Of a stretch of DNA of 11,884 bases, positions 2,814 through 11,852 are shown in pieces. How positions within the stretch are numbered: the first letter of the stretch is position 1; each line of letters starts with the position of its first letter. Source of the stretch: a virus (lineage: Duplodnaviria; Heunggongvirae; Uroviricota; Caudoviricetes); IMG/VR virus record IMGVR_UViG_2703719368_000012, positions 1 through 11,884 of that record. One strand, 5' to 3'. The notes under the pieces were generated by a model, which saw only the letters and a list, made by a program, of their open reading frames with translations, was not told the DNA's origin and made no database searches. The translations under genes were made by a program, and so were the position numbers.

Positions 2814-3386
2814 TATCGCGTCCTCAACAATGAATTTTGTGATGCGGTGCCTGGTGCCTCCAGGTGACGTTAACCAGTTAACAATTAACGCCGGATACAG
2901 AGCATTCTCGTTACTCAGCAAATGACCGCTTTACCGATTTAACTGTTCCGCGTGCGCTGAGCCGCATTCACCGCATCACAAAATTCACTTTTAAAAAAGG
3001 GCGGCAGAGCAGTTACGGAGTAAAACTGATACCGCCAAATGTCACCAGAATATTGATAACAGAGGGCGTTGCAGCGGGGTTGTCACTTAAGCGTATGGTC
3101 AACCTGACAACCCGGTGTCCTCAACGGGGAAAGAATAACCCCGCCATACTTACCGCCGCGCCATTTCGCGGATTGCCACAACCGGAAGCGCACGGTCGAA
3201 TTAAATTTAACGACGGCTCTAAGGGAGAAGGACTTCGCCGTGCACTTTCGTGTTATGCCCTGACTTTTCAGGGATATATCCTTTCAGTAAACTGTCAGTG
3301 CCGGATTCTTATCTGTGTCCGGCGCACGACCACACGTAGCAGCGTGTTGGTCTCCATTTTTAATTCAGCCCTTAATGGAGGATAAA

Positions 3387-4445: not shown

Positions 4446-4621
4446 GTTGACCTCATTTCCCCTTAACGCCGGGTAGCGGAACAAAAACCTGCTGCATAGT
4501 TATTAAAGTTGAACCCTGCCGTCATGTTCATACGCCTCGGGCTGGCTACTTACCCCCTGACCACTGCTTGGTAACTCGAAGTATTGCCCGGCGTTCTGTG
4601 GGGCGGGGTGGGTGGTTGGTG

Positions 4622-4661
4622 TATGTAATCTACAATTAAAAACTGTTTTTGTGTCAACAGT
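4622..4661. promoter_or_regulatory. OL-like operator palindrome with embedded leftward (pL-like) promoter
   Basis: Perfect inverted repeat, 16-bp arms (4622-4637 and 4646-4661, AATTAAAAACTGTT / AACAGTTTTTAATT core) with an 8-bp spacer. On the minus strand the spacer and arm contain a consensus TTGACA (plus-strand 4643-4648). The unit is near-identical to the palindrome at 5667-5705. Confidence 0.5.
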
Positions 4662-4671
4662 TTTTAATTGT

Positions 4672-4694
4672 TGTTTTGGGCAAAAAAATCCCTC
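4672..4694 (-). terminator. Rho-independent terminator ending the repressor-antitoxin-toxin transcription unit
   Basis: On the minus strand: stem TCCCTC/GAGGGA (4679-4684 and 4689-4694) with a GAAA-type tetraloop, followed by a T7 run (plus-strand A7 at 4672-4678); lies 30-50 nt downstream of the toxin stop at 4723. Confidence 0.6.
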
Positions 4695-4722
4695 GAAAGA
4701 GGGAGTATGAAAATTGTTCAAC

Positions 4723-5010
4723 TCAGATAGAGAAGGGAAATTGTCGCCGAGAATGTGTCACGCTTACAATCTCAATGCTTGAAGCAGCTACTCTGTACAG
4801 GATTATGTAGTTAGGGTGGGTCACGATCTCTCTCAATCCAGAAACCCGTTCGCTTGGTGGATATAAGTACGGATGCTCAGATAGAGGTAATACCGATGTT
4901 TCAATGCGTATTTTTAGTCTACGTGCTGCCGGTGGGTTCTCCTTGGCGATGTAAGTTATGATCTGGCGCAAATCATCGCGAGCAGACGGTAGCCATAAAA
5001 TGGGTAACAT
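4723..5010 (-). CDS. Type II toxin, ParE/RelE family (95 aa)
   Basis: Product MLPILWLPSARDDLRQIITYIAKENPPAARRLKIRIETSVLPLSEHPYLYPPSERVSGLREIVTHPNYIILYRVAASSIEIVSVTHSRRQ carries the ParE/RelE signature pattern (W..A..DL..I..YI, GLRE, YII.YR, V.H..R). Its start overlaps the upstream small gene stop by 1 nt (TAATG). Confidence 0.7.
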   Translation of the reverse strand: MLPILWLPSARDDLRQIITYIAKENPPAARRLKIRIETSVLPLSEHPYLYPPSERVSGLREIVTHPNYIILYRVAASSIEIVSVTHSRRQFPFSI

Positions 5011-5201
5011 TACTCGCTCTTGTTAGTTACAGCAATTTGAGCAATAAGATTTTCCATTTCAGCCATTACCTCGTCATGTGGAATTGCGGGGCGAGTGTCT
5101 GCAAGGCTTGACGTTACTTTAGTGCGCAACCATTCGTTGTAACTGTTTTCTTGTTCGGTAGTTTCGAATTCTGAAACTATCGGAGAAAGGGCTGTACCCA
5201 T
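5010..5201 (-). CDS. Putative cognate antitoxin of the ParE/RelE-family toxin (63 aa)
   Basis: ATG at 5199-5201 with GAGGAG 5 nt upstream; small acidic product (MGTALSPIVSEFETTEQENSYNEWLRTKVTSSLADTRPAIPHDEVMAEMENLIAQIAVTNKSE); immediately upstream of and overlapping the toxin gene in the canonical antitoxin-first order. Confidence 0.6.
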   Translation of the reverse strand: MGTALSPIVSEFETTEQENSYNEWLRTKVTSSLADTRPAIPHDEVMAEMENLIAQIAVTNKSE

Positions 5202-5228
5202 GGCATAACTCCTCTTCTTGTACTGTGG

Positions 5229-5630
5229 TCACGCCCGGCGGCTTTTTTGTGCCGCCAGCCACCTAGCAATGGTTTCTTCCATTGATTTTTTCTTGTCTTT
5301 GATTTCTTGAAGCATTTTTTCTTGGTCTTCCTCAGGAAACGCACTAAAAGCTTGGAGCAGTTCGCGTTGGCGAGGACCAATTTTCATCGTGTCAGGGGTG
5401 AAAATTTGCTCACACTCTTCAGGAGGCAATAAAAACCAATGCAATGGATGCCCTGAAACCTCAACCAGTTTATCCAAACTTGAGGCTTTAGGTGTAGCCT
5501 TACCGCTGACCCATTGTTGAACAGTTTGTTGTGTCACACCAATTCTACGGGCAAGCTCAGCCTGGCTCCATCCAGTTTCCTGAAGAAGCTTGCTGATTCT
5601 GTACATAGATACTTCTAGGGCGCTCATCAT
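5229..5630 (-). CDS. Prophage repressor-like HTH (XRE/Cro-CI family) DNA-binding protein, about 133 aa, no peptidase domain
   Basis: HTH signature SQAELARRIGVTQQTVQQWVSGKATPK; transcribed divergently from the cro-like gene across the operator region at 5631-5738. ATG at 5630 has no Shine-Dalgarno (possibly leaderless); an alternative ATG at 5606 gives 125 aa. Confidence 0.7.
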   Translation of the reverse strand: MMSALEVSMYRISKLLQETGWSQAELARRIGVTQQTVQQWVSGKATPKASSLDKLVEVSGHPLHWFLLPPEECEQIFTPDTMKIGPRQRELLQAFSAFPEEDQEKMLQEIKDKKKSMEETIARWLAAQKSRRA

Positions 5631-5666
5631 TATTCAATTTTACAGGTAAATACTGTTAAAAGCATC

Positions 5667-5705
5667 ACAATAAAAAACTGTTGATTGCATACAGTTTTTT
5701 ATTGT
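5667..5705. promoter_or_regulatory. OR-like operator palindrome with divergent promoters (rightward pR-like; repressor promoter on the opposite strand)
   Basis: Inverted repeat with 15-bp arms (5667-5681 ACAATAAAAAACTGT and 5691-5705 ACAGTTTTTTATTGT), 9-bp spacer containing TTGATT; an extra ACTGTT half-site at 5651-5656; candidate -10 TATAGT at 5716-5721 ahead of the GGAGG RBS and ATG at 5739. Confidence 0.55.
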
Positions 5706-5738
5706 AGGCTTTGCTTATAGTTTTTAGAGGAGGGCAAA

Positions 5739-6011
5739 ATGCTAGATAGCACTCGCGAAAAAATTAGGCAGAAATACACTCAGGCTGAAATAGGTCGTTA
5801 TATGGGGGTCGCTCAACAGACTGTTTGGCAATGGTTTAGCTTTGGCGTTCCCCCAAAGCAGGTAATTCCGTTATGCCAACTAATGAAGTGGGAAGTTACC
5901 CCGCATGAAATCCGCCCAGATATTTATCCTAACCCAACCGACGGTTTACCTGTTGGATGTAAGGTTAACACATCAAATGCGCCGGAGTTGATTCATGAAA
6001 ATCAAGCATGA
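5739..6011 (+). CDS. ydaS: Cro-like HTH regulator, YdaS family (90 aa)
   Basis: ATG at 5739 with GGAGG 8 nt upstream; HTH AEIGRYMGVAQQTVWQW and a C-terminal ...EVTPHEIRPDI motif recalling the YdaS-family ELRPD motif; first gene of the rightward operon. Confidence 0.7.
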   Translation: MLDSTREKIRQKYTQAEIGRYMGVAQQTVWQWFSFGVPPKQVIPLCQLMKWEVTPHEIRPDIYPNPTDGLPVGCKVNTSNAPELIHENQA

Positions 6012-6420
6012 ACACATCCGCATGGCGATGAATGCCTGGGCGCATCCGGACGGCGAAAAAGTACCGGCTGCGAAAATTACCAAAGCGTATTTCGAGCTGG
6101 GAATGACGTTCCCGGAACTGTATGACGACAGCCATCCGGAAGCCATGGCTCGCAATACTCAGAAAATTTTCCGCTGGGTGGAGAAAGACACTCCTGATGC
6201 GGTTAAAAAAATTCAGGCGTTGTTACCAGCGATCGAAAAAGCGATGCCGCCTCCGCTGGTGGCCCGAATGCGCAGCCACAGTTCCGCTTATTTTCGGGAG
6301 TTGGTAGAGACGAAGGAACGGCTGGTGAAAGATATTGATGATTTCGTTGCATCAGCGATCGTTCTGTTCGATCAGATGAATCGTGGTGGCCCGGCAGGAA
6401 ACACTCTGGCTGTGCATTAA
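5995..6420 (+). CDS. ydaT: YdaT-like protein (141 aa), toxic-when-derepressed family in Rac
   Basis: Product begins MKIKHEHI, as I recall for Rac YdaT; start overlaps the end of the ydaS-like gene by 17 nt; GGAG about 8 nt upstream. Confidence 0.7.
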   Translation: MKIKHEHIRMAMNAWAHPDGEKVPAAKITKAYFELGMTFPELYDDSHPEAMARNTQKIFRWVEKDTPDAVKKIQALLPAIEKAMPPPLVARMRSHSSAYFRELVETKERLVKDIDDFVASAIVLFDQMNRGGPAGNTLAVH

Positions 6421-6433
6421 TTGGGTAATAAAT

Positions 6434-6943
6434 ATGAGTAATGACAAAAAATTGACACTGAGCGTTTACGAAAACAGTCCGCACATCTGGCGTGGCGGTT
6501 TATCTGATGTGGAGCTGGCAGAGTGGTTGATACATAAAGCTAATGCGCTGCTCTGGCGTTTGTCAGCCAGAGAACAGCGCAAGGAAACCAGAATAAAGCT
6601 GGCTGATGCAGAAGCGTGTGCCGGGCTTATTGAGGATTATACAAATCTTGGTATTTCTTCAGCAGAGAGTGATCCCATTCAGCCTCTGAGCAGGGAGTCA
6701 ATCCAGCACGCTGGTTGTATGGCACATCTTGTAACTGCTCGTCAACATGAGGTGGGTATTGGATCACTTCCGGCGGGATATTCGCTGATTCCAGAGCTGG
6801 TTGAAGCAAGAAAATCAGTTCAGAAAAAGAGAGATGACGCACTTCAATTATTGAGAGAGCACTATGGCGCGATACCAGAATGCGAACAGCGTCGATACCC
6901 TGAAGGTTATGAATGGATGCAGTCTCTTTTTGAAGTTCGCTAA
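6434..6943 (+). CDS. Hypothetical early-right protein (169 aa)
   Basis: ATG at 6434 (MSNDKKLTLSVYENSPHIWRGGLSDVELAEWL...); ordinary codon usage; the RBS is weak, and an alternative GTG at 6383 would overlap the ydaT-like gene. Confidence 0.55.
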   Translation: MSNDKKLTLSVYENSPHIWRGGLSDVELAEWLIHKANALLWRLSAREQRKETRIKLADAEACAGLIEDYTNLGISSAESDPIQPLSRESIQHAGCMAHLVTARQHEVGIGSLPAGYSLIPELVEARKSVQKKRDDALQLLREHYGAIPECEQRRYPEGYEWMQSLFEVR

Positions 6944-7160
6944 TCAATATGTCGAGACGAAGGTATGTTTCGGCGCGCAGCCAGGCTCTGTAATCCGGGA
7001 GCATTTCGGGGCTGTTACACCAGCGGTTTGTTGCTGCAACATTTAATACATGAGCCTGATAAAGGCTTTTCAAAAAATACATGTCGAACCTCCTCTGGTT
7101 CTGTCGATTGGGAACCACAGATTATATCCGGAGGAAGGTTCGGCACCAGATGAGGTAGCC

Positions 7161-8252
7161 ATGCGTGATTACGCAAAAGTTTCTCCGCGATTCTGGCTGG
7201 GAGAAACGGGGAGAGAACTTAGAAAGGCGGGTGCAGAAGCGCAAGTTGTTGCTTTTTACCTGATGACATCCCCTCACGCAAATATGCTGGGTTTGTATTA
7301 CCTGCCAGTTTTATACCTTGCTCATGAAACCGGGCTTGGTCTGGAAGGGGCTTCAAAGGGGCTTAAAAGGGCTGTTGAAGCTGGTTTTTGTAGCTATGAC
7401 CATGATGCAGAGATGGTCTGGGTCCATGAAATGGCAGCCTGGCAGGTTGGGGAAACGTTGAAGCCTGGCGATAACCGTTGTGCAGGTGTCAGGAATGAGT
7501 ATGCATCATTACCTGAAAACGCTTTTCTGTCAGTGTTTTACGACAGATATAAAACGGATTTCCATCTGGATGTGAGGCGGAATAATAGCCGAAATTCGGT
7601 AAGGGGCTTCGAAGGGGCTTTTAAGGGGCTTCGAAGCCAAGAACAGGAACAGGAGCAGGAGAAAGAACAGGAACAGGACAAAAACACTATGGTTCATGGC
7701 AAAAAAAACACCACGAACCAGGCAGGGGATGTTCAGACCGTCAATCCTGGTCAGCCAGCAGGCACGACACCGGAAGCCGATTCGGGCGCTGTGCAGCAGG
7801 TGATGACCGCAGGGTCGGAGCAATCACACCAACTGCAGCAGCCTGAAGCCGATTCCGCCATTCAGCGGGAAGCCGATCGGGTAGTCCCGGAAAGCACCGG
7901 GCAGTCTGTGGGACGAGTGGATTATCCGGATGTGTTCGAACAGGTCTGGCGGGAATACCCGTTGCGTGCTGGGGCAAACCCGAAGAAATCCGCTTTCAGT
8001 GCCTGGAAGGCCAGATTGCGCGAGGGGGTGCCACCAGAGACCATGCTGGATGGTGTGAGGCGTTACGCGAGATACCTGGCGGCGACCGGGAAAGCGGGAA
8101 CGGAATTTGTTCAGCGAGCGACGACGTTTTTTGGGCCGGACCGGAATTTTGAAAACCCCTGGTTGCTCCCGGTAAGCGGCACGAACAACCAGCGTTGTGT
8201 GAATCATATTTCTGAACCGGATACCGAAATTCCGCCGGGATTCAGGGGGTGA
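7161..8252 (+). CDS. ydaU: YdaU-like (DUF1376) putative replication initiation or replisome-organizer protein with an EQ-rich linker (363 aa from this start)
   Basis: ATG at 7161 with GAGGT 4 nt upstream. N-terminal region (FWLGETGRELRKAGAEAQVVAFYLMTSPHANMLGLYYLPVLYLAHETG...EMVWVHEMAAWQVGE) matches my recollection of Rac YdaU; it directly precedes the DnaC-like gene, as lambda O precedes P. The track ORF begins at ATG 7050 but has no RBS there. Confidence 0.75.
   Translation: MRDYAKVSPRFWLGETGRELRKAGAEAQVVAFYLMTSPHANMLGLYYLPVLYLAHETGLGLEGASKGLKRAVEAGFCSYDHDAEMVWVHEMAAWQVGETLKPGDNRCAGVRNEYASLPENAFLSVFYDRYKTDFHLDVRRNNSRNSVRGFEGAFKGLRSQEQEQEQEKEQEQDKNTMVHGKKNTTNQAGDVQTVNPGQPAGTTPEADSGAVQQVMTAGSEQSHQLQQPEADSAIQREADRVVPESTGQSVGRVDYPDVFEQVWREYPLRAGANPKKSAFSAWKARLREGVPPETMLDGVRRYARYLAATGKAGTEFVQRATTFFGPDRNFENPWLLPVSGTNNQRCVNHISEPDTEIPPGFRG
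7345..7375 (+). repeat. Iteron-like direct repeats, cluster 1 (AAGGGGCTT at 11-bp spacing)
   Basis: AAGGGGCTT at 7345-7353 and 7356-7364, with a degenerate third copy (AAAAGGGCT) at about 7367; exactly 11-bp periodicity. Confidence 0.45.
7601..7682 (+). repeat. Iteron-like direct repeats, cluster 2 (3 x AAGGGGCTT at 11-bp spacing) followed by a tandem hexanucleotide (GAACAG-like) array and an A-rich tract; candidate origin within the initiator gene
   Basis: AAGGGGCTT at 7601-7609, 7612-7620 and 7623-7631; then GAACAG GAACAG GAGCAG GAGAAA GAACAG GAACAG GACAAA (7641-7682), encoding the QEQEQEQEKEQEQDK linker; then A-rich sequence including an A8 run. Confidence 0.5.
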
Positions 8253-11521: not shown

Positions 11522-11589
11522 AGCTGCGGGTGCTTGAGGCTATCTGCCTCGGGCATGAACACCAACGGCAGATAGAGAAAAGCCCCAGT

Positions 11590-11657
11590 TAACATTACGC
11601 GTCCTGCAAGACGCCTAACATTAATCTGAGGCTCAATCTATGAACGGCAAATCTAGG
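11590..11657 (-). ncRNA. sok: Putative Sok-like antisense RNA (type I antitoxin), approximate boundaries
   Basis: Minus-strand candidate -10 TAAGAG (plus-strand 11664-11669) sits opposite the start region of the upstream ORF, as in R1 sok; a hairpin GCGTC/GACGC (11599-11614) lies at the expected 3' end. Ends are not determinable from sequence alone. Confidence 0.35.
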
Positions 11658-11696
11658 TTAGCCTCTTACGTGCCGAAAGGCAAGGAGAAGCAGGCT

Positions 11697-11852
11697 ATGA
11701 AGCAGCAAAAGGCGATGTTAATCGCCCTGATCGTCATCTGTTTAACCGTCATAGTGACGGCACTGGTAACGAGGAAAGACCTCTGCGAGGTACGAGTCCG
11801 AACCGGCCAGACGGAGGTCGCTGTCTTCACAGCTTACGAACCTGAGGAGTAA
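11697..11852 (+). CDS. hok: Hok/Gef-family type I toxin (51 aa); an in-frame upstream ATG at 11640 gives a mok-like leader reading frame
   Basis: Product MKQQKAMLIALIVICLTVIVTALVTRKDLCEVRVRTGQTEVAVFTAYEPEE is a canonical Hok-family sequence (single TM helix, conserved Cys, C-terminal YEPEE), closely matching my recollection of HokD/RelF. The track ORF 11640-11852 extends the frame upstream by 19 codons. Confidence 0.85.
   Translation: MKQQKAMLIALIVICLTVIVTALVTRKDLCEVRVRTGQTEVAVFTAYEPEE

Follow-up and report, generated by a model that had tools for sequence, protein, structure and literature searches.

Candidate 15-bp operators in the immunity region of the cryptic prophage Sp4 of Escherichia coli O157:H7

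Where would the repressor of a lambda-like prophage act when its operon is bracketed by two near-identical palindromes: on the palindromes as wholes, or on something smaller inside them? The question is raised by a stretch of 11,884 nucleotides (nt) of caudoviral DNA (IMG/VR record IMGVR_UViG_2703719368_000012), called the window throughout, which is 100% identical to E. coli O157:H7-type chromosomes. The Sakai annotation names this region "prophage Sp4, lambda-like phage," and the window is most likely the immunity region of that cryptic prophage. A sequence-only reading had proposed that the two palindromes are its operators, an equivalent of the left and right operators (OL and OR) of lambda. 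As judged from the DNA and its relatives, the conserved unit is instead a 15-bp site, ACA(A/G)(T/G)-N5-(A/C)(C/T)TGT, not a 40-bp palindrome. We propose that five such operators are each bound by a dimer of the 133-amino-acid (aa) helix-turn-helix (HTH) repressor and form the Sp4 immunity switch, with recognition resembling that of phage 434, a reading to which we assign a probability of roughly three in four. The proposal draws on sequence anatomy, conservation, co-variation with the DNA-binding domain, and homology to the repressor of 434 and to PaaR2 of prophage CP-933P, from which we infer binding, promoter starts, activation, cooperativity, and OL-OR looping.

The palindromes and the unit within them

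The first palindrome, ACAATTAAAAACTGTT-N8-AACAGTTTTTAATTGT, lies at 4632-4671 and has perfect arms of 16 nt around an 8-nt spacer; the second, ACAATAAAAAACTGT-N9-ACAGTTTTTTATTGT, lies at 5667-5705 and has perfect arms of 15 nt around a 9-nt spacer. The sequence-only reading had quoted both sequences exactly and placed the second correctly, but its position for the first, 4622-4661, was 10 nt off. In 300 dinucleotide-preserving shuffles of the window, with hairpin loops of 3 to 20 nt, the longest perfect arm was usually 8 or 9 nt and once reached its maximum of 14 nt. As had been supposed, two mutually similar palindromes with arms of 15 and 16 nt are therefore no chance occurrence. The two elements differ from each other in a single change, which is mirrored in both arms. 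The outward-facing -35-like hexamers that had been noticed in the spacers are also there: TTGACA on the minus strand (4657 to 4652) and TTGATT on the plus strand (5681-5686).

What does not hold is the size of the operator. Each arm is by itself a complete, quasi-symmetric 15-bp site, ACA-N9-TGT, and the distance between arms varies while the length of the unit is constant, which argues against the whole palindrome as the operator. The proposed half-site ACTGT-N-ACAGT falls as well, since one site stands alone and relatives retain the 15-mers without the large symmetry. That solitary site, a third related copy with the sequence ACAGGTAAATACTGT, had been overlooked. The large palindromes would arise simply because O1 and O2 are mirror-image copies placed on either side of a -35 hexamer. 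The repressor gene and the five sites, named by analogy with lambda, are as follows; PL, PR, and PRM denote the predicted leftward, rightward, and repressor maintenance promoters.

5229-5630, minus strand: repressor gene ECs_1069, 133 aa, annotated "phage repressor protein"
4632-4646, no strand assigned: predicted operator OL1, ACAATTAAAAACTGT, left arm of the first palindrome, in the PL spacer
4657-4671, no strand assigned: predicted operator OL2, ACAGTTTTTAATTGT, right arm of the first palindrome
5642-5656, no strand assigned: predicted operator OR3, ACAGGTAAATACTGT, overlapping the PRM -10 hexamer and spacer
5667-5681, no strand assigned: predicted operator OR2, ACAATAAAAAACTGT, left arm of the second palindrome
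5691-5705, no strand assigned: predicted operator OR1, ACAGTTTTTTATTGT, right arm of the second palindrome, in the PR spacer

The strict motif occurs five times in the window, every time in one of the two regulatory gaps, against a mean of 0.16 in shuffled sequence, a comparison limited by the fact that the motif was defined only after the sites had been seen. When end positions are scored, the same five sites, and no other in the window, reach 10/10, and nothing of 9/10 or more that could be a third OL site was found near OL. Start-to-start spacings are 25 nt between OL1 and OL2, and 24 and 25 nt within OR. The 108-bp gap that separates the divergent repressor and cro-like genes holds OR1 to OR3, which extend over the predicted PRM -10, PR -35, PR spacer, and PR -10, while OL1 and OL2 flank a conserved TTGACA...TAGATT past the terminator of the repressor operon and upstream of ydfA, ydfB, and dicB. 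Pooled half-sites are ACAGT (17), ACAAT (10), ACAAG (9), and ACAGG (4), with centers that are 93% A/T; the ACA ends in this tally are fixed by the search pattern, and they are also invariant in positional alignments.

Conservation, co-variation, and likeness to phage 434

Of 5,426 complete E. coli genomes, 511 have the repressor together with OR and 523 have the full OL region. In about 3,200 other genomes, similarity to the left flank ends at window positions 4613-4633, the outer edge of OL, and OL therefore belongs to the immunity cassette. The idea of an OL/OR-like pair is thus sustained: the elements bracket the repressor operon, co-occur with the repressor, coincide at OL with the left break in homology, and carry conserved outward promoter hexamers. 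For comparison within the family, 49 IMG/VR relatives and two E. coli variants (given L numbers below) yielded 23 distinct OR haplotypes; a scan of genome contigs returned only one relative, in Arsenophonus. Among the 20 OR haplotypes whose repressors are at least 91% identical, variable columns number 1 of 45 within the operators and 26 of 44 in the rest of the intergenic sequence (Fisher p = 1e-9). OR2 and OR1 have no variable column (0/15 each) and OR3 varies only at its central position, 5647, while in the OR2-OR1 spacer all 4 nt outside the -35 hexamer vary. OL1 is likewise conserved amid variable flanks, its variants being confined to central A/T bases and to the outer half-site, where ACAAT becomes ACAAG or ACAGT. 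From the start of OL1 to that of OL2, most haplotypes have 24 nt and the window has 25, the length of the 15-mers being constant.

The same arrangement is retained as the repressors diverge. In L046 (repressor 80% identical) and L047-49 (68%), ACA-N9-TGT sites whose inner sequences differ stand at -75, -51, and -26 relative to the ATG, and two more sites downstream of the operon flank TTGAC(A/G). In the Arsenophonus prophage remnant (L005/L054), the repressor is 48% identical and its recognition helix, TQQTVQQW, is identical; the OR sites are ACAAGAAAATATTGT at -82 and ACAAGATGATCTTGT at -33, with a degenerate ACAATAAATTCTTTT between them, and the repressor gene is followed by ACAATAAAATACTGT-TGACA-N4-ACAATTATTTATTGT, without any large palindrome.

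The motif is found wherever the helix reads TQQTVQQW, across repressors 48 to 100% identical, and is replaced where the HTH domain differs (L050-53, L004, L058, Stx2 phages, and phi467). The CI proteins of Stx2 phages and phi467, with about 45 to 55% HTH identity and the helix SAQSVQYW, go with ATCAAG repeats and without the motif. L050-L053 have the same C-terminal domain, the helix AQQSVQKW, and ACAC-type sites at equivalent positions. The claim that the palindromes define the immunity specificity of the prophage can accordingly be kept insofar as the motif changes with the DNA-binding domain, with the correction that its unit is the 15-mer and not the palindrome. Two of these cases deserve mention in their own right. 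At the three OR positions of L050-L053 the sites read ACAC(T/C)TTT instead of ACA(A/G)T, and the glutamine-to-lysine change at the position equivalent to 33 in 434 may be a natural specificity switch at operator position 4. L004, from E. coli GF60, carries two tandem leftward regulator genes at 1805-2609 along with TTTAGT-type repeats, one encoding a 132-aa HTH protein beside toxin-antitoxin genes and the other a 123-aa PaaR2-like protein beside OR.

How does this protein recognize its sites? The best PDB matches of the repressor are N-terminal domains of the 434 repressor (phmmer; 1per and 2r63; E = 3e-5). Glutamines 28, 29, and 33 of 434 are conserved here, TQQSIEQL of 434 pairing with TQQTVQQW, and the Cro-like protein of the window also has QQ at these helix positions. 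The three residues, Gln28, Gln29, and Gln33, are said, from the work of Aggarwal et al. in 1988 and Anderson et al. in 1987, to be assigned to base pairs 1 to 4 of the 434 operator. The six annotated 434 operators (OL657226.1) are the 14-mers ACAAGAAAGTTTGT, ACAAGATACATTGT, ACAAGAAAAACTGT, ACAAGGAAGATTGT, ACAATAAATATTGT, and ACAATGGAGTTTGT, and they share with the sites described here the half-site vocabulary ACAAG/ACAAT/ACAGT. The 434 repressor contacts the outer 5+5 bp of its operator and reads the central bases indirectly (PMC1636474), and central A-tracts increase its affinity (PMC3317979). Both systems have an A/T-rich center, three OR sites between divergent repressor and cro genes, and a promoter -10 that abuts the end of O1.

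The differences from 434 are equally plain. Site length is 15 bp here (ACA-N9-TGT, 5/5) and 14 bp in 434 (ACA-N8-TGT, 6/6), and none of the five window sites has the ACA-N8-TGT spacing of the imm434 form, ACAA-N6-TTGT. G at position 4 occurs in about half of the half-sites here and in 1 of 12 in 434. OL has two sites instead of three, adjacent sites are separated by 9- to 10-bp spacers, PRM is predicted to be leaderless, and the repressor lacks the LexA-like C-terminal peptidase domain of 434. Because site length and C-terminal domain both fail to match, the system is not imm434. The opinion that these operators are distinct from those of 434 is thus half right: the half-sites ACAAT/ACAAG/ACAGT and the recognition-helix glutamines are common to both systems, and the site is 1 bp longer.

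Predicted promoters, the proposed switch, and its rivals

Five promoter elements can be predicted around the operators.

4627-4632, minus strand: predicted PL -10, TAGATT, called from conservation, its first T being the last base of OL1
4652-4657, minus strand: predicted PL -35, TTGACA, in the inter-operator spacer, sharing one base with OL2
5681-5686, plus strand: predicted PR -35, TTGATT
5705-5710, plus strand: predicted PR -10, TAGGCT, 18 nt after the -35 hexamer
5637-5642, minus strand: predicted PRM -10, TAAAAT, 6 nt upstream of the repressor ATG

Neither OL nor OR yielded a promoter in a generic sigma-70 scan, and these calls therefore rest on conservation, not on consensus strength. The PL -10 is unchanged in 27 of 28 distinct OL haplotypes (repressors 68 to 100% identical), the exception being TAGTTT in L042, and the 48% identical Arsenophonus relative has TAAATT/TTAAAT in its place. 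The PL -35 is invariant in relatives except for TTGACG in L047. The distance between these two hexamers is 19 nt in the window and 17 to 18 nt in most relatives. Sp4 has one extra T in its OL spacer (4648-4652, TTTTT versus TTTT in most relatives, e.g., L008 and L019), a change that takes the predicted PL spacer from 18 nt to 19 nt and could make PL a weaker promoter in this cryptic prophage. At PR, the -35 is kept as TTGAYY in 22 of 23 haplotypes (TTTATT in L007) while the adjacent 4 spacer nt vary freely, and the -10 has an invariant T, A, and final T (TAnnnT) around variable middle bases; TATAGT at 5716-5721 was considered as an alternative PR -10 and rejected, as it is not conserved. At PRM, TAAAAT-N6-ATG is kept in all relatives down to 66% identity with no Shine-Dalgarno sequence, and the repressor mRNA is predicted to be leaderless, starting at 5630.

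The geometry is regular. The first base of each predicted -10 is also the final base of an operator (TGT|AGATT at PL, TGT|AGGCT at PR, and TGT|AAAAT at PRM), and the PL and PR -35 hexamers start with the last base of O2. Predicted operator centers thus fall near -19 of PL and PR for O1, near -19 of PRM for OR3, and near -43 or -44 for O2; for the center of OR2 the values are about -44 relative to the start predicted for PRM and about -43 relative to that for PR. The starts of PR and PL are predicted at about 5717 (plus strand) and about 4620 (minus strand).

From these positions a switch can be proposed. Glutamines at the positions equivalent to 28, 29, and 33 of 434 would read ACA(A/G), and the A/T-rich center would be read indirectly, the extra central base pair being expected to prevent cross-recognition with 434. 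Repressor on O1 and O2 would shut PR and PL, and repressor on OR3 would shut PRM; on OR2, at about -44, it may stimulate PRM, which has no -35. The Cro-like YdaS homologue probably also binds the five operators. Cooperativity, as well as OL-OR looping over about 1 kb, could be supported by the PaaR2-like C-terminal domain, given that PaaR2 forms octamers in solution (PMC8630535).

Several observations weigh against this proposal. The predicted PR and PL have 18- to 19-nt spacers and weak -10 hexamers, and PRM lacks a recognizable -35. A center that is 1 bp longer turns the half-sites by about 36 degrees. The geometry of the dimer must therefore differ from that of 434, and glutamines are assigned to bases here by analogy only. 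The repressor and the Cro-like protein always change together, which makes their individual site preferences inseparable. Most pointedly, OR1 and OR2 match as mirror images at 15/15 positions in the Sp4 type, 14/15 in L046, and 13/15 in L047, and several substitutions in their presumably non-contacted center are mirrored in the partner site, something that independent 15-bp sites do not predict. The mirroring signal is weak, coming from three lineages, and possible sources are gene conversion from arm to arm or between OL and OR, or a symmetric higher-order complex. The mirror arrangement of O1 and O2 might itself be functional, either as a 39- to 40-bp "super-operator" for a symmetric tetramer or octamer, whose outer half-sites might not be equivalent to the inner ones, nor the two directions of the central A-tract to each other, or as a hairpin in RNA from a repressor establishment promoter (PRE) or from read-through. 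If true, this would explain the mirrored changes in the non-contacted OR1/OR2 center; we hold it to be unlikely.

The alternative that survives best takes each 39- to 40-bp palindrome as one operator, with half-sites AAAAACTGT and ACAGTTTTT 8 to 9 nt apart, bound by one dimer or by a symmetric tetramer that needs both arms. The perfect symmetry of the arms in the window speaks for it, as do the near-mirror OR1/OR2 pairs of the diverged relatives with their mirrored co-changes, and the PaaR2 octamer makes an arm-spanning assembly plausible for a protein with a common C-terminal domain (PMC8630535). The inner half-sites, however, are not a fixed distance apart: OL and OR differ in this respect, as do strains (ACTGT-N9-ACAGT or ACTGT-N10-ACAGT). 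OR3, which is equally conserved, is a single 15-mer with no partner arm, and the OL sites are direct rather than mirrored in L045 and also non-mirror in L047 and L054. In the L006 group, L013, and L042, whose repressors are 97 to 100% identical, a single base distinguishes the two OL arms, and each arm has its own dyad (ACA...TGT), with the dimensions usual for a single HTH dimer site such as that of 434. We consider this one-operator alternative unlikely.

It is less probable still, and very unlikely, that the palindromes act as nucleic-acid structures (a cruciform, an RNA hairpin, or a terminator), possibly in leftward transcripts that start at PRE or read through. The predicted RNA hairpins are respectable (-16 to -19 kcal/mol, z = -4.4 to -6.8), a terminator scan flags 4632-4671 on the plus strand, and the sole OL/OR difference, being mirrored, keeps the pairing. 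But the main transcripts would exclude the palindromes, both of which are upstream of the starts predicted for PR, PL, and PRM; the stems are nearly all A/T, with three G-C pairs; and pairing at OL is broken without compensation in the L006 group, L013, L042, and L045-L047. The T-run that follows the plus-strand OL hairpin is lost in relatives (TGTTTT to GGGCTG or AGATCT), and neither hairpin is followed by a T-run on the minus strand. OR3 and the invariant ACA/TGT ends would be left unexplained. As a terminator in particular, the OL palindrome was rejected, its T-run not being conserved and no gene needing one.

Least of all do we believe that LexA (SOS), or some other regulator of host or prophage such as YdaT through the TTGATT of the OR spacer, is what recognizes the CTGT...ACAG cores: SOS input through LexA would be attractive for a repressor without an autocleavage domain, but the LexA consensus, CTGT-N8-ACAG, is absent from the window, where the spacings are N9 (OR) and N10 (OL), the bases between the cores vary freely, the sites change along with the prophage's own HTH domain, and LexA boxes were rejected. 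A YdaT site at OR was rejected too: TTGATT is one half of a YdaT site (PMC9986795), but it is a single, non-conserved half-site (TTGATC or TTGACC in relatives) whose second half, AATCAA, is absent at OR; an exact YdaT operator lies at 5988-6005, and YdaT has no effect on PR, PRM, or PL of CP-933P (PMC8630535).

CP-933P, lambda, and the surrounding prophage

The system to which the proposed five-operator switch compares most closely is that of CP-933P (Sp12) of E. coli O157:H7, where PaaR2, YdaS, and YdaT act like CI, Cro, and CII, and PR, a leaderless PRM, PL, and PRE have been mapped (Jurenas et al. 2021, PMC8630535). PaaR2 and YdaS footprint the equivalent gap there and repress PR, PRM, and PL, and the leaderless start of paaR2 was mapped by 5' RACE (PMC8630535). 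A system homologous to this one is present on CP-933M (PMC8630535); Sp4 is probably CP-933M, and the window presumably carries the system mentioned there. The remaining genes and elements of the region are as follows.

5010-5201, minus strand: PaaA2-family antitoxin gene ECs_1068 (Pfam PF21217, E = 5.6e-19)
4723-5010, minus strand: ParE-family toxin gene ECs_1067 (Pfam PF05016, E = 2.9e-17)
4689-4704, minus strand: intrinsic terminator, TCCCTCTTTCGAGGGA and then T7, of the repressor-antitoxin-toxin operon, between parE and OL
5739-6011, plus strand: Cro-like YdaS-family gene, 90 aa (Pfam PF15943), recognition helix AQQTVWQW
5995-6420, plus strand: ydaT, functional analogue of lambda cII (E = 1.4e-82 to PDB 8bt1, CP-933P YdaT; Pfam PF06254)
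5988-6005, no strand assigned: YdaT operator OM, TTGATTCATGAAAATCAA, 0 mismatches, at the ydaS/ydaT junction, marking a PRE-like region

The repressor ECs_1069 combines an N-terminal HTH_3 domain containing the helix TQQTVQQW with a PaaR2-like C-terminal domain; only HTH families reach the curated Pfam cut-offs, and no peptidase family appears at any Pfam score. The stem and T-run of the operon terminator are retained in relatives. Gene order is the same in CP-933P and the window, with repressor-PaaA-ParE leftward and ydaS-ydaT rightward (Pfam PF21217, PF05016, PF15943, and PF06254), and both have an operator cluster at a PL-like promoter beyond the toxin-antitoxin genes. In both, a -10 hexamer stands 6 nt before the repressor ATG, GATAAT-N6-ATG in CP-933P and TAAAAT-N6-ATG here. 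YdaT is nearly identical in the two, and the exact operator in the window, TTGATT-N6-AATCAA at the ydaS/ydaT junction, has the motif and location of OM as footprinted in CP-933P (Prolic-Kalinsek et al. 2023, PMC9986795). YdaT and OM thus look like a cII/PRE module common to two prophages with differing repressor and Cro modules.

Those differing modules separate the two systems. PaaR2, which begins MQKKE, aligns with the window repressor over the C-terminal ~98 aa (42% identity, E = 2e-20), whereas the N-terminal DNA-binding domains are unrelated, and the Cro-like proteins have no detectable similarity; the window is not CP-933P. Operators in CP-933P are 18-bp inverted repeats of the TTTAGT type with the consensus GTTTAGTAA, in contrast to ACA-N9-TGT here, and such GTTTAGTAA repeats are absent from OR and OL of the window while being present in CP-933P itself. 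OL has two sites here and three reported in CP-933P. Because the DNA-binding domains are unrelated and the operators differ, the two systems should be heteroimmune, to go by their sequences. Among lambdoid immunity regions, this one probably belongs to the PaaR-PaaA-ParE/YdaS/YdaT class, and it is not of the CP-933P immunity type.

The likeness to lambda lies in layout: a three-site OR at divergent PR/PRM, a second cluster at PL across the repressor operon, adjacent sites 24 to 25 bp apart, genes co-transcribed with the repressor (rexAB in lambda, paaA-parE here), and a leaderless cI mRNA, as predicted for the repressor here. The operators themselves are dissimilar in sequence and 17 bp long in lambda, no RecA-cleavable domain is present here, and the OL-OR distance, about 1.0 kb, is shorter than the roughly 2.3 kb of lambda.

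Beyond the immunity region, the left of OL carries ydfA, ydfB, and dicB and then exonuclease and integrase genes, and replication genes lie to the right of ydaT. Between ydaT and the latter, on the opposite strand, is a moron-like gene for an "ECs1072 family phage-associated protein" (6627-7118, minus strand). Upstream of dicB lies the gene for the small RNA DicF (2999-3050, minus strand; Rfam RF00039, 76.9 bits), closely flanked by a 24-nt inverted repeat (2826-2849 and 2969-2992) that is 92% complementary. Repeats of the form GGGGCTT(C/T)NAAGGGGCTT, direct and inverted, at 7340-7381 and 7596-7648, fall inside the gene annotated in Sakai as "phage replication protein" and resemble origin iterons within an O-like gene, as in lambda. 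At the right end, the sok antitoxin RNA (11528-11702, plus strand; Rfam RF01794, 105.6 bits) adjoins the annotated hokD, the two forming a type I toxin-antitoxin locus.

Literature searches on paaR1, CP-933M, and the ECs locus tags turned up no account of the operators of this system; the searchable literature does not include Hallez et al. 2010. As proposed, this is an ordinary immunity switch that would work like those of lambda, 434, and CP-933P and is apparently undescribed, and no general concept is changed by it. Its main value is a concrete, testable map of operators and promoters, in which the unit has been corrected from a 40-bp palindrome to 15-bp, 434-like sites. It represents an uncharacterized sister of the CP-933P paaR2 switch, with the same toxin-antitoxin-bearing scaffold and a different, 434-like DNA-binding module. 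The family offers natural variants of HTH specificity: sites of 15 bp where those of 434 have 14 bp, either A or G at position 4, and a glutamine-to-lysine helix change that goes with ACAC sites. About 9% of complete E. coli genomes carry this immunity type, O157:H7 Sakai and EDL933-type strains among them.

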